64,000 nt of DNA from Escherichia coli (GCF_001677475.2 NZ_CP015229.1); one strand, 5' to 3'. Shown: positions 21,001-60,000, numbered from the stretch's first letter. A program made the numbers.

Positions 21001-24000
21001 GAAGATATAATCGACTCGGGGAATACACTGTCGAAAGTGCGTGAGATCTTAAGCCTGCGCGAACCGAAGTCGTTGGCGATTTGTACGCTGCTGGATAAAC
21101 CGTCCCGTCGTGAAGTGAACGTCCCGGTAGAATTTATCGGTTTCTCGATCCCGGATGAGTTTGTGGTGGGTTACGGCATTGATTACGCACAGCGTTACCG
21201 TCATCTGCCGTATATCGGTAAAGTGATTCTGCTGGACGAGTAAGTGTGAAGTTGCCGGATGTGTTGCATCCGGCATGGCATTTTTATTTGTGGTTGGCGT
21301 GTTTCAGCTTGAGGTTGGAGATCCCGTGACGGTAACGTTGCTCAAGGGTTTCGCGGTTGGTCGCTGTAACATCCAGATCACGCAGCAAGCCGTCGTGAAT
21401 GCCGTAGGCCCAGCCGTGAATGGTAACTTTCTGCCCGCGTTTCCACGCTGATTGCATAATGGTGGAGTGGCCCAGGTTATACACCTGTTCCATGACGTTC
21501 AGTTCACACAAGGTATCCAGACGGCGCTCTTGCGGCATTTCGCCGAGCAATGAGCTATGTTTGAACCAGATATCGCGGATATGCAGCAGCCAGTTGTTGA
21601 TAAGCCCCAGTTCCGGGTTTTCAACGGCGGCTTGTACGCCGCCGCAACCGTAGTGGCCACAGATAATAATGTGTTCAACTTCGAGTACATCCACTGCATA
21701 CTGAACCACGGAAAGGCAGTTCAGGTCAGTGTGAATGACCAGGTTAGCAACATTACGGTGAACAAAGAGTTCGCCCGGCTCAAGACCGGTTAAACGTTCT
21801 GCAGGAACGCGACTGTCGGAACATCCAATCCATAGAAAGCGCGGTTTTTGCGCTTGTGCCAGTTTCTCAAAAAACCCGGGATCCTCTTCCACCAGCATTT
21901 TTGACCATAGTGCATTGTTGCTGATGAGTGTATCTATGTCTTTCATGGAGGTTAACGACCTGTAACCAAATAATTACGTTTGGCTAATATAGGGCAACTC
22001 CGGGACGATTTAAACCACAGATAAAGTGTAAGAACGTAAGGTAAGTAAAAATTTATGACCATTGCACTGGAACTTCAACAGCTTAAAAAAACCTATCCAG
22101 GCGGCGTTCAGGCGCTTCGTGGAATAGATTTGCAGGTCGAAGCGGGTGATTTTTATGCGCTTCTCGGGCCGAACGGGGCCGGGAAATCGACCACTATCGG
22201 TATTATCAGCTCTCTGGTAAATAAAACCTCCGGGCGGGTCAGCGTATTTGGTTACGATCTCGAGAAGGATGTCGTGAACGCTAAACGTCAGTTGGGACTG
22301 GTGCCGCAGGAATTTAACTTCAACCCGTTTGAAACCGTGCAGCAAATTGTGGTGAATCAGGCTGGGTACTACGGCGTGGAGCGCAAAGAAGCGTACATCC
22401 GCAGCGAAAAGTATCTTAAACAGCTCGATCTATGGGGAAAACGCAACGAACGTGCGCGCATGTTATCTGGCGGGATGAAGCGCCGTTTAATGATTGCTCG
22501 AGCGTTAATGCATGAACCTAAACTACTGATTCTCGACGAACCGACCGCAGGCGTGGATATTGAACTTCGCCGCTCGATGTGGGGATTTTTGAAGGATTTA
22601 AACGACAAAGGCACCACCATCATTCTCACCACACACTACCTGGAAGAAGCAGAAATGCTGTGCCGCAATATCGGCATTATTCAACACGGTGAGCTGGTGG
22701 AAAATACCTCGATGAAGGCGCTGCTGGCGAAGCTGAAATCGGAAACCTTTATTCTCGATCTCGCACCGAAAAGCCCGTTACCGAAGCTCGATGGCTATCA
22801 GTATCGACTGGTCGATACCGCGACGCTGGAAGTTGAAGTGCTGCGTGAGCAGGGGATCAACAGCGTATTTACGCAGTTAAGTGAGCAGGGCATTCAGGTA
22901 TTAAGTATGCGTAACAAAGCTAACCGTCTGGAAGAGCTGTTTGTTTCACTGGTTAATGAAAAACAAGGAGATCGCGCATGATGCATCTTTACTGGGTGGC
23001 GCTAAAAAGCATCTGGGCGAAAGAGATCCATCGCTTTATGCGTATCTGGGTGCAGACGCTGGTGCCGCCAGTCATCACCATGACCCTTTACTTTATTATC
23101 TTCGGTAACCTGATTGGTTCGCGTATTGGCGATATGCATGGCTTCAGCTACATGCAGTTCATCGTACCGGGGCTGATCATGATGTCGGTGATCACCAACG
23201 CCTACGCTGACGTCGCGTCATCATTTTTTGGTGCCAAGTTTCAGCGTAATATTGAAGAGCTGCTGGTAGCGCCGGTTCCGACTCACGTCATTATTGCCGG
23301 ATATGTCGGCGGTGGCGTGGCGCGTGGTCTGTTTGTTGGCATTCTGGTGACGGCAATTTCACTGTTTTTTGTGCCATTTCAGGTGCATTCGTGGGTATTC
23401 GTTGCCTTAACGCTGGTGCTCACGGCGGTGTTGTTCTCCCTTGCGGGTTTGCTGAACGGTGTGTTTGCCAAAACGTTCGATGATATCAGCCTGGTGCCAA
23501 CCTTTGTGTTAACGCCACTCACGTATTTGGGCGGGGTCTTTTACTCACTGACTTTGTTGCCGCCGTTCTGGCAAGGGCTGTCGCACCTGAACCCAATCGT
23601 TTATATGATCAGTGGTTTCCGCTACGGCTTCCTCGGTATCAATGATGTTCCGCTGGTCACTACCTTTGGCGTACTGGTGGTCTTTATTGTGGCGTTTTAT
23701 TTGATCTGTTGGTCGCTGATCCAACGTGGACGTGGTTTGCGTAGCTAAGGCTATTTCCTCTCCTCTGGATTTGGGGGAGAGGAGTTTTGACGGCTATCAC
23801 CCTTTATCAACAATGGTCAGGGTAGACTGATTTTCGGCTAAGGAGGAAGGCGATGTTAGGTTGGGTAATTACCTGTCACGATGACCGGGCGCAAGAGATA
23901 CTGGATGCGCTGGAGAAAAAACATGGGGCACTTCTTCAGTGCCGGGCCGTGAATTTCTGGCGCGGATTAAGCTCTAATATGCTCAGCCGCATGATGTGCG

Positions 24001-57000: not shown

Positions 57001-60000
57001 GGCGCACCAGCACGATGGTCAGCATGCTGGTGACCATTGCAACGACCAGATCGGTGGGATCTTTCACCCAAAATACCGGGCCGTGATCCAGCGCCATGTC
57101 GCGAATTGTTCCGCCGCCTACTGCGGTAACCACGCCCAGTACCAGAACACCAAAAGGGTCCATACGCAATTTTCCGGCTAACAAAACGCCGGAGATGGTA
57201 AATACCGCTGTGCCGACTATATCCAGCCAATAGACGAGCATTGTTCAATCCCCACTGAGCACCTGAAAAGGTCAGGCGCTAATCTACCTGTGAAAGCGCA
57301 TTACAGAGCTGTTGTGCAGCGAGGATAATACGTGGGCTTGCACGTTCAAACCAGTCACTCGTGAGAGGAATAACGGGAATTTTGAGCTGTTCACCCCAGT
57401 ATTGTTTGATTTTAGGAATTTGGTCCGGTCCGCCTGTAATGACAATCGCCTGTGGCGAGCGTGCTAACACCTGTTCGCGGCTAACTTGCGGCCAGGGAAC
57501 CCGGCTGTCTTTAAAGATGTTTTCTCCGCCACAAACTTCGAGTACCTGGTTCTGAATCGACTCTTTTCCACTGGTAAATGGCGGATTAATGCCGAATTGC
57601 AGAAAAACACGTTTTTTAGGTTTATCAGCATATTGCGCTTTCAATTGCGCGTACTGATCCAGCAGGGATTGCGCGGCTTGTTCGGCCTTATCCGGTTGCG
57701 GACTCCAGGGGACCAGTTGACGTAACGCATTGGCAATTTGTTCAATGCTTGTCGCATCGACCCACATCACTTTTATTCCCAGAGAAGCCAGCTGGTCAAC
57801 CTGCCGCTCGGCATTACCTCCACGCCAGGCAATCACCAGATCGGGTTTCAGCGCCACAATGCGTTCCAGATTCATCCCCTGCCAGGTGGAAACCTGCTCA
57901 ATCTTTTGCGCTTGTGGAGGATAGTCGGAATAGCTGCTGACCCCAACCGGCGTGATCCCGGCGGCAAAGGCAAGTTCAGTGTTGGCGGGAGAAAGCGTGA
58001 TGACGCGCGGCGCGGCGTTGAGCCACAGCGGCGCGAGAAAAGACAGGGCGACCAGCGCCCTGAACAGTGACTTAGCCATGTGCCAGTTTCTGCACCAGTG
58101 ACTCAACCATCAGGCTGGACTGTTTAGCGGCAACAGCCAGGAACTCATCGAAGCTAAGATGAGACTGTTGATCGGCCACGTCGGAGATGGCGCGTACTAC
58201 GACAAACGGGACGTTGAAATTGTGGCAGACATGGGCGATTGCCGTCGCTTCCATCTCTACAGCAATGGCCTGTGGGAAGTTGTGGCGGATTTTCGCCAGA
58301 CCAACAGAACCGTTGATGAAAGCGTCGCCGCTAACAATCAGGCCACGTACAGCGTTAAGATTCAGTTCGGCAATGCAGGCCTCAGCGGCAGCGATCAGTT
58401 TATCGTCAGCTTTGAAGCCTGCCGGGCAGCCTGGTAACTGACCGTATTCATAACCAAATGCCGTGACATCCGCGTCGTGATAACGCGCTTCGTCCGAGAC
58501 AACGATATCGCCCACTTTCAGCGTTGGTGCCAGGCCACCGGCAGAACCGGTGTTAATAATCACATCTGGCTTGCAGTGTTCCAACAGCAGAGTGGCACCC
58601 AGCGCCGCGGCGACTTTACCGATGCCCGATTTCAGAAGCGCAACCTCGGTTCCATTCAGTTGGCCGGTATAGATTTCGCAACCGCCCAGACTGATAGTTT
58701 GACGGTTTTCGATTTTGTCACGCAGCAGCGTAACTTCTTCTTCCATTGCACCAATGATGCCGATTTTCATAGATTTACTCGCGATAAGCCCGATTTGAAG
58801 GCATAGTTTACCATGCGCTTACGGGGAAGCGTATTTCTCACGCGGGAGAGGACATGGCACAGATTGATTTCCGAAAAAAAATAAACTGGCATCGTCGTTA
58901 CCGTTCACCGCAGGGCGTTAAAACCGAACATGAGATCCTGCGGATCTTCGAGAGCGATCGCGGGCGTATCATCAACTCTCCGGCAATTCGTCGTCTGCAA
59001 CAAAAGACCCAGGTTTTTCCACTGGAGCGCAATGCCGCCGTGCGCACGCGTCTTACCCACTCGATGGAAGTCCAGCAGGTGGGGCGCTACATCGCCAAAG
59101 AAATTTTAAGCCGTCTGAAAGAGCTTAAATTGCTGGAAGCATACGGCCTGGATGAACTGACCGGACCTTTTGAAAGCATTGTTGAGATGTCATGCCTGAT
59201 GCACGATATCGGCAATCCGCCGTTTGGTCATTTTGGCGAAGCAGCGATAAATGACTGGTTTCGCCAACGTTTGCATCCGGAAGATGCCGAAAGCCAGCCT
59301 CTGACTGACGATCGCTGCAGCGTGGCGGCACTACGTTTACGGGACGGGGAAGAACCGCTTAACGAGCTGCGGCGCAAGATTCGTCAGGACTTATGTCATT
59401 TTGAAGGTAACGCACAGGGTATTCGTTTGGTGCATACATTGATGCGGATGAATCTCACCTGGGCACAGGTTGGCGGTATTTTAAAATATACCCGTCCGGC
59501 GTGGTGGCGTGGCGAAACGCCTGAGACACATCACTATTTAATGAAAAAGCCGGGTTATTATCTTTCTGAAGAAGCCTATATTGCCCGGTTGCGTAAAGAA
59601 CTTAATTTGGCGCTTTACAGTCGTTTTCCATTAACGTGGATTATGGAAGCTGCCGACGACATCTCCTATTGTGTGGCAGACCTTGAAGATGCGGTAGAGA
59701 AAAGAATATTTACCGTTGAGCAGCTTTATCATCATTTGCACGAAGCGTGGGGCCAGCATGAGAAAGGTTCGCTCTTTTCGCTGGTGGTTGAAAATGCCTG
59801 GGAAAAATCACGCTCAAATAGTTTAAGCCGCAGTACGGAAGATCAGTTTTTTATGTATTTACGAGTAAATACCCTAAATAAACTGGTACCCTACGCGGCA
59901 CAACGATTTATTGATAATCTGCCTGCGATTTTCGCCGGAACGTTTAATCATGCATTATTGGAAGATGCCAGCGAATGCAGCGATCTTCTTAAGCTATATA

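Follow-up and report, generated by a model that had tools for sequence, protein, structure and literature searches.

Conserved stop/start overlaps at gene junctions in a 64,000-nucleotide stretch of Escherichia coli DNA and their plausible role in translational coupling

Overlapping gene junctions and their conservation

The DNA analyzed here, referred to below as the window, is a stretch of 64,000 nucleotides (nt) from Escherichia coli (GCF_001677475.2, NZ_CP015229.1), with positions counted from its first letter. At five junctions in the window, yadG/yadH, fhuC/fhuD, fhuD/fhuB, pcnB/folK, and mtn/btuF, the stop codon of one gene shares nucleotides with the start codon of the next gene on the same strand. 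All five overlaps are present on direct reading of the window, with open reading frames (ORFs) ending and beginning at the positions collected in Table 1. K-12 proteins map from residue 1 onto the window ORFs at 88-100% identity, and NC_000913.3 (K-12 MG1655) carries the same annotated overlaps, of 4 nt at yadG/yadH, 1 nt at fhuC/fhuD, 4 nt at fhuD/fhuB, 4 nt at pcnB/folK, and 8 nt at mtn/btuF. The original prediction, which had read these five overlaps as signs of translational coupling, was therefore right as to coordinates, gene names, and overlap types. Its listing of folK ahead of pcnB has to be reversed, because pcnB lies upstream on the minus strand, and its catalogue was incomplete: a sixth overlap, between yadW, which encodes a small protein of 21 amino acids (aa), and erpA, had been overlooked. 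All five pairs and yadW/erpA are co-directional neighbors whose stop and start overlap at spacings of -4 (three junctions), -1 (one), or -8 (two), the three spacings that are enriched in prokaryotes (PMC12548453).

Overlaps of this kind are already known as a common feature of operons, and two of those described here have been noted explicitly in print. They account for 6 of the 35 same-strand pairs in the window (17%), close to the genome-wide share in E. coli of ~15% (PMC5318159), so that the window is typical in this respect rather than enriched. Two small observations adjoin the catalogue. The yadX gene lies 11 nt upstream of clcA, and yadW and yadX may both act as upstream ORFs for the genes that follow them. 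The pcnB start is a non-canonical ATT, as in the K-12 annotation; public assemblies give the protein 454, 465, or 472 aa, and an ORF scan of the window returns a 472-aa pcnB ORF from a TTG.

Table 1. Overlaps, gene pairs, Shine-Dalgarno (SD) motifs, and btuF hairpin, in window coordinates
Feature	Position	Strand	Description
yadG/yadH overlap	22978..22981	+	ATGA, -4 class; yadG stop TGA 22979-81, yadH start ATG 22978-80
fhuC/fhuD overlap	50313..50317	+	TGATG, 1-nt overlap, -1 class; fhuC stop TGA 50313-15, fhuD start ATG 50315-17
fhuD/fhuB overlap	51202..51205	+	GTGA, -4 class; fhuD stop TGA, fhuB start GTG
pcnB/folK overlap	37574..37577	-	TCAT = minus-strand ATGA, -4 class; pcnB stop TGA, folK start ATG
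mtn/btuF overlap	58072..58079	-	TTAGCCAT = minus-strand ATGGCTAA, 8 nt, -8 class; mtn stop TAA 58072-74, btuF start ATG 58077-79
yadW/erpA overlap	56227..56234	+	ATGAGTGA, 8 nt, -8 class; yadW stop TGA, erpA start; sixth overlap
SD-like motif for yadH	22965..22970	+	AAGGAG inside yadG, 7 nt before ATG; anti-SD duplex -8.5 kcal/mol
Strong SD for fhuB	51191..51195	+	GGAGG inside fhuD, 6 nt before GTG; anti-SD duplex -10.8 kcal/mol
SD-like motif for folK	37584..37588	-	GAGGG inside pcnB; anti-SD duplex -6.2 kcal/mol
yadG-yadH	22055..23748	+	ABC-2-type transporter ATPase and permease; Pfam PF00005 and PF01061 on orthologues
pcnB and folK	37098..38971	-	pcnB start ATT 38969-38971
fhuC-fhuD-fhuB	49518..53184	+	inner part of the fhuACDB operon
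mtn and btuF	57279..58770	-	yadS 37 nt downstream of btuF
btuF hairpin and U-run	58036..58062	-	CAGGGCG-CTGGT-CGCCCTG, U-run TCTTTTCT; btuF codons 6-15; from terminator scan

The conservation of these junctions was followed in a genome scan anchored on HemL, which yielded 80 Enterobacterales loci in which junctions were called by homology, with 54-68 loci usable per overlap. The fhuC/fhuD spacing of -1 is found in 33 of 54 loci (61%), in the form T[GA]ATG, the other loci lying mostly at +1 to +29; this spacing persists although the fhuC stop may be TGA or TAA and codons 2-5 of FhuD vary freely. At fhuD/fhuB, 44 of 54 loci (81%) have a spacing of -4 and 5 have -1, with the start codon alternating between ATG and GTG. 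The mtn/btuF spacing of -8 recurs in 39 of 68 loci (57%) as RTGnnTAA, where the choice of ATG or GTG depends on whether the overlapping Mtn codon is His or Arg. The ATGA of yadG/yadH occurs in all 7 loci from 4 other genera (Enterobacter, Salmonella, Pectobacterium, and Serratia), and its SD motif is kept. The register of pcnB/folK drifts, from -8 in Proteus through -1 in Pectobacterium, -1 or -4 in Serratia, and +2 in Tatumella to +14 in Providencia and +20 in Xenorhabdus, with a spacing that is always 20 nt or less. As a control, the E. coli gap at two non-overlapping junctions of the same operons is retained in just 6 of 43 cases for fhuA/fhuC (14%) and 4 of 44 for btuF/yadS (9%). The spacing of the overlaps is conserved beyond its local background, as expected of a feature maintained by selection.

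Outside the -8 class, mtn/btuF has a spacing of -4 in Rahnella and Ewingella and of +1 to +3 in Serratia, Yersinia, and Pectobacterium, and the two genes lie 63-205 nt apart in Photorhabdus, Proteus, Providencia, and Moellerella, several of these with hairpins in between. Because mtn and btuF stand apart in Morganellaceae, the overlap, and with it any coupling, appears specific to Enterobacteriaceae and Erwiniaceae. Eight Morganellaceae loci, four of Photorhabdus and two of Proteus among them, have the separated arrangement, and the Photorhabdus gap contains a clear hairpin after mtn.

Transcription units and the RNA 3' end inside btuF

The expectation that these overlaps define operon units does not hold, as the real units are larger: fhuACDB, (thpR-sfsA-dksA-gluQ-)pcnB-folK, and mtn-btuF-yadS, the last listed as an operon in PMC11731830. 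Published evidence for co-transcription exists for two of the groups. The pcnB-folK mRNA is dicistronic, with the ATGA overlap drawn in a figure and a Rho-dependent end (PMC1636475), and the same transcription unit has been defined by RNA-seq (PMC4161252); users of CRISPR interference (CRISPRi) regard pcnB-folK as polar. The window pair has the same overlap as the K-12 operon and differs from it in that its folK is divergent (88% amino-acid identity) with the ATGA retained, against the range of -8 to +20 in other Enterobacterales. For fhuCDB, described as one operon, the authors of a cryo-EM study remark on the overlapping nucleotides of adjacent genes (PMC8660799). The window carries the same genes in the same order and with the same overlaps (1 nt and 4 nt) as E. 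coli fhuACDB, its proteins being 99.4-100% identical to those of K-12, and we see no substantive difference between the two. Evidence for mtn-btuF is indirect: a Salmonella insertion in pfs (mtn) is polar on B12 uptake, as reported in PMC11837498, but an RNA 3' end lies inside btuF. The yadGH pair may share one mRNA, given the absence of promoter and terminator motifs.

The mtn/btuF junction differs from a clean transcription unit on account of this RNA 3' end. A hairpin of 7 pairs, 6 of them G-C, begins 10 nt past the mtn stop and is followed by a U-run. Term-seq in K-12 maps RNA 3' ends to 178423/178421, equivalent to ~58040/58038 of the window, within the U-run and 4-6 nt past the hairpin stem; the study assigns them to mtn as primary ends and to btuF as internal ones, at 39 nt from the btuF start (PMC7815308). 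The site has an average read count of 45780 and is neither Rho-dependent nor sensitive to bicyclomycin (BCM); its intrinsic score is 2.32, against a threshold of 3.0, and coverage falls across it from 106 to 75 (PMC7815308). About 30% of the coverage is thus lost and ~70% continues into btuF. Given the sub-threshold score and the small fall in coverage, the site is best described as a weak terminator or a decay stop, and since most coverage passes it, co-transcription of mtn and btuF is not overturned.

The same window offers a comparison at dksA/gluQ, where the RNA 3' end of the upstream gene also falls in the first codons of the downstream one. A terminator hairpin after dksA, AGGCGGGAAATGCTCCCGCCT followed by a T-run (39946-39966, minus strand), contains the gluQ ATG (39957), and Term-seq shows a very strong 3' end at 160097. 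This end lies 15 nt into gluQ, compared with 39 nt into btuF, and its terminator is a strong intrinsic one (score 7.47, coverage falling from 250 to 62), in contrast to the weak btuF site. The two junctions also differ in their spacing, since dksA and gluQ are separated by 36 nt whereas mtn and btuF overlap.

The excess of structure at the btuF hairpin is modest. The hairpin sequence is conserved in Enterobacteriaceae: in 32 sequences from this family, 77.7% of cells in the stem are paired, where slid controls give 41-60%, and covariation is slight. RNAalifold returns no consensus structure for the 32 aligned btuF 5' regions. Synonymous-codon controls give a mean z of -0.93, and the window hairpin is unremarkable among them (z = -1.08, p = 0.14). 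In Erwiniaceae it is replaced by a different hairpin of 9 bp, which is significant in the same kind of control (z -2.5 to -3.2). A terminator under strong selection in the lineage of the window was accordingly rejected, in view of the window p value, the lack of an RNAalifold consensus, and the modest excess of structure. The 5' arm of the hairpin contains AGG, a rare codon for arginine that Citrobacter, Enterobacter, Lelliottia, and Phytobacter retain.

The pairing of an SD-less 8-nt overlap with a mapped 3' end offers the sole mildly new angle in these data, and a low-probability one. It is conceivable, albeit improbable, that mtn/btuF is a combined control point, in which the overlap ties btuF translation to ribosomes finishing mtn and the hairpin ends or stabilizes part of the mtn mRNA. 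Such an arrangement would fix a low BtuF:Mtn ratio and coordinate B12 uptake (for MetH) with flux in the S-adenosylmethionine (SAM)/methyl cycle.

Ribosome recruitment and translational coupling

The five downstream starts differ in how ribosomes could reach them. The yadH, fhuB, and folK starts each have an SD of their own within the upstream gene (Table 1) and are not SD-deprived, unlike fhuD and btuF, upstream of which no SD is present (anti-SD duplexes of -2.2 and -2.8 kcal/mol, respectively). In other genera the yadH motif reads AAGGAG, AGGGAG, or GGGGA, and the fhuB motif GGGAGG is conserved across loci. Because fhuD and btuF lack an SD and start on the preceding stop, they are the best candidates for termination-reinitiation. 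Ribosome profiling (Ribo-seq) agrees with this for fhuD, giving similar translation efficiencies for fhuC and fhuD, 0.55 versus 0.53 at pH 4.4 and 0.60 versus 0.65 at pH 5.8 (PMC10746267). The translation efficiency of pcnB is 0.50 (Burkhardt 2017 tables).

We hold with good confidence that the junctions are genuine, conserved, canonical overlaps within known polycistronic units, at which the proximity of stop and start enables coupling. Translational coupling itself, at all five pairs, is a plausible reading of this arrangement. Termination on the upstream gene would leave a ribosome only a few nucleotides from the next start, where it could reinitiate; alternatively, the terminating ribosome may unfold the local RNA and so give access to a new one. 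The SD-less fhuD and btuF would most likely depend on termination-reinitiation. At yadH (AAGGAG), fhuB (GGAGG), and folK (GAGGG), coupling could be combined with de novo initiation at the SD in the upstream gene, and for fhuB such initiation would be needed to account for a ribosome density above that of fhuD. At mtn/btuF, the weak hairpin and U-run 3' end after the overlap removes some transcripts before they reach btuF.

Pairs with established coupling resemble those of the window in several respects. In trpB-trpA and in hyfHI, astDB, menDH, and ydbH-ynbE (Huber et al. 2019), the genes are co-directional with spacings of -4, -1, or -8, and the SD is embedded in the upstream ORF or absent, as it is here. 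Their partners are often subunits of one complex, which is also the case for yadGH and fhuCDB but not for pcnB/folK or mtn/btuF. Accordingly, the 4.5-fold enrichment for complex subunits among pairs spaced -8 to +10 (PMC10666635) fits the former two and not the latter. The window pairs differ from these systems in that coupling is predicted for them rather than established, and in that fhuB appears to receive additional de novo initiation.

Several observations weigh against coupling as the account of these junctions. An overlap is in itself no proof of coupling: among five overlapping E. coli pairs tested, bioBF overlaps without being coupled (PMC6728339), and the relative translation of overlapping pairs is about as variable as that of non-overlapping ones (p = 0.06; PMC5318159). 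None of the five window pairs is among those tested in PMC6728339 or PMC10666635. The overlaps also fail to delimit the operon units, which extend further, and part of the mtn mRNA ends before carrying btuF, as seen from the Term-seq 3' end. Folds of 100 nt around the junctions are no more stable than those of shuffled sequence (z +0.9 to -0.8). The fhuB SD sits in a predicted hairpin at ~51179-51236 that is not significant (z = -0.57), and the folK SD and ATG sit in one of ordinary stability (z = -0.17). With the fhuB and folK starts in predicted stems but no junction folding beyond shuffles, coupling through RNA structure was dropped as an explanation, and nothing in our argument rests on structure. 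Finally, ribosome density at pH 4.4 is higher on fhuB than on fhuD, at 26/40/42 versus 12/20/13 reads per kilobase per million (rpkm), with translation efficiencies of 1.1-1.9 versus 0.5-0.9 (PMC10746267); the counts for both genes are low, so that the comparison is indicative only. Taken as such, the excess of fhuB argues against strict coupling at fhuD/fhuB: reinitiation alone would be insufficient, and the strong SD must recruit ribosomes de novo.

These points lend some weight to the view, unlikely in our estimate yet by no means far-fetched, that genome compaction produced the overlaps as neutral by-products and that the downstream genes are translated independently from their own ribosome-binding sites. 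Three of the four bases of NTGA already come with the start codon, which would let -4 overlaps arise and persist easily, and a review credits their abundance to such evolutionary ease (PMC12548453). The window agrees that chance readily produces the motif. Of its 53 stops, 10 are overlapped by a start-like triplet at -4, 6 at -1, and 4 at -8, yet real genes begin at no more than 3, 1, and 2 of these triplets, respectively; the motif alone is therefore uninformative. The uncoupled bioBF, the variable translation-efficiency ratios of overlapping pairs, the usable SDs at yadH, fhuB, and folK, and the higher fhuB density all sit comfortably with independent translation. Two observations go beyond chance: genes defined by homology begin exactly at these triplets, and their spacing holds across genera. 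The spacing is kept while the stop, the start, and the neighboring codons change, and far better than the neighboring gaps are, which counts against neutral compaction. Also against it are the translation of fhuD and btuF without an SD, with a translation efficiency of fhuD that matches fhuC, and the strict coupling of four of the five tested E. coli overlapping pairs (PMC6728339).

Two further alternatives concern the transcripts and the annotation. It is quite improbable that the pairs are transcribed separately, by way of internal promoters or terminators at the junctions, in which case an overlap would be silent on operons. The original prediction would have been contradicted by independent promoters and terminators between the pairs; promoters were not found, and on the side of terminators the 3' end primary for mtn and 39 nt inside btuF goes part of the way. 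The Morganellaceae loci in which mtn and btuF are separated, several with hairpins, point in the same direction, as does a terminator-like hairpin, GCGGGTGCTGCACCTGT followed by GAGTTTTGTT, at 50283-50299 (plus strand), which ends 14 nt before the fhuC stop. The latter was rejected as a site splitting fhuC from fhuD: Term-seq in lysogeny broth (LB), conditions in which fhu is poorly expressed, lists no RNA 3' end there, and such matches are common within the fhu coding sequence (15, against 8.1 +/- 3.0 in shuffles). The btuF site, in turn, falls below the intrinsic threshold and reduces coverage only slightly, and no Term-seq 3' ends are listed in fhuC, fhuD, folK, or yadH. A motif scan found no coding-strand sigma-70-like promoter within ~250 nt upstream of any junction, and the overlapping junctions leave no intergenic room for a terminator. 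The dicistronic pcnB-folK mRNA and the reported polar pfs insertion likewise speak against separate transcription. Still less credible, to the point of being very improbable, is that some downstream starts are mis-assigned and some overlaps are artefacts of annotation. The candidates would be the second ATG of yadH (-1), a TTG for fhuD (-4), an upstream TTG for btuF (58106), and a GTG two codons into folK. The ORF scan does return longer TTG-start ORFs for fhuD (50312) and btuF (58106), the window reads ATGATG at yadH, and gene callers disagree over starts in the region, as in the pcnB lengths given above. However, the -4 triplet at fhuD is CTG, CTA, or TTA, and no start, in most other genera while the ATG is kept in 33 loci, and the ATG is for this reason preferred over the in-frame TTG at 50312. 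Enterobacter yadH has the -4 ATG as its sole option (ATGACG), and YadH homologues are uniformly 256 aa. The btuF start is ATG or GTG in 39 loci and yields a normal signal peptide. Any alternative start would, moreover, still overlap or abut the upstream stop.

Genuine, conserved overlaps that plausibly enable coupling remain our preferred account, and its value lies mainly in careful annotation. The starts of yadH, fhuD, fhuB, folK, and btuF are fixed, in keeping with the earlier claim that the overlaps constrain start-codon choice, which the conservation of the fhuD, yadH, and btuF starts bears out. The overlaps also serve as a warning that an insertion in an upstream gene, or CRISPRi against it, will have polar effects. 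Because fhuD and btuF lack an SD, their native expression calls for cloning together with the 3' end of the upstream gene. The 3' end at mtn/btuF is a reminder that an overlap does not automatically mean one clean transcription unit.

Divergent stretches elsewhere in the window

Away from the junctions, the window contains several stretches that diverge from K-12. The largest is a chaperone-usher fimbrial operon at the yad locus (29265-37190), whose proteins are 37-60% identical to K-12 yadCKLM-htrE-yadVN. Across 5,426 complete E. coli genomes, the best DNA match to its usher gene reaches at most ~65% identity. The proteins of this locus correspond to ANO87292-ANO87299 and have close relatives in Escherichia ruysiae and in unclassified cryptic-clade Escherichia. 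The adjoining folK allele has 88% protein identity to K-12 and a best DNA identity of 88.5%, and, judging from the identity profile, a recombination boundary may lie within the 3' part of this gene, at ~37140-37190. Elsewhere, the best identity to the same complete RefSeq genomes is 96.9% for pcnB-thpR (37500-41900), 98.5% for fhuCDB (49400-53300), and 99.3% for yadGH; judged by these values, the lineage or mosaic of the window appears poorly represented among complete genomes.

Smaller differences are found at three other places. The convergent fhuB/hemL gap (53185-53218) is 34 nt long and holds one bidirectional hairpin (53190-53212), compared with a gap of 157 nt in K-12, which has ~120 extra bases. 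In the rpnC (yadD) region (26244-27400), the protein is 306 aa long, against 300 aa in K-12, with 91.5% identity, and the 66 C-terminal residues recur in a partial second copy (62% identity) immediately downstream, at 27236-27400. Lastly, yacH (8931-10688, minus strand) encodes 585 aa rather than the 617 aa of K-12, at 89% identity, between neighbors that are 99-100% identical.

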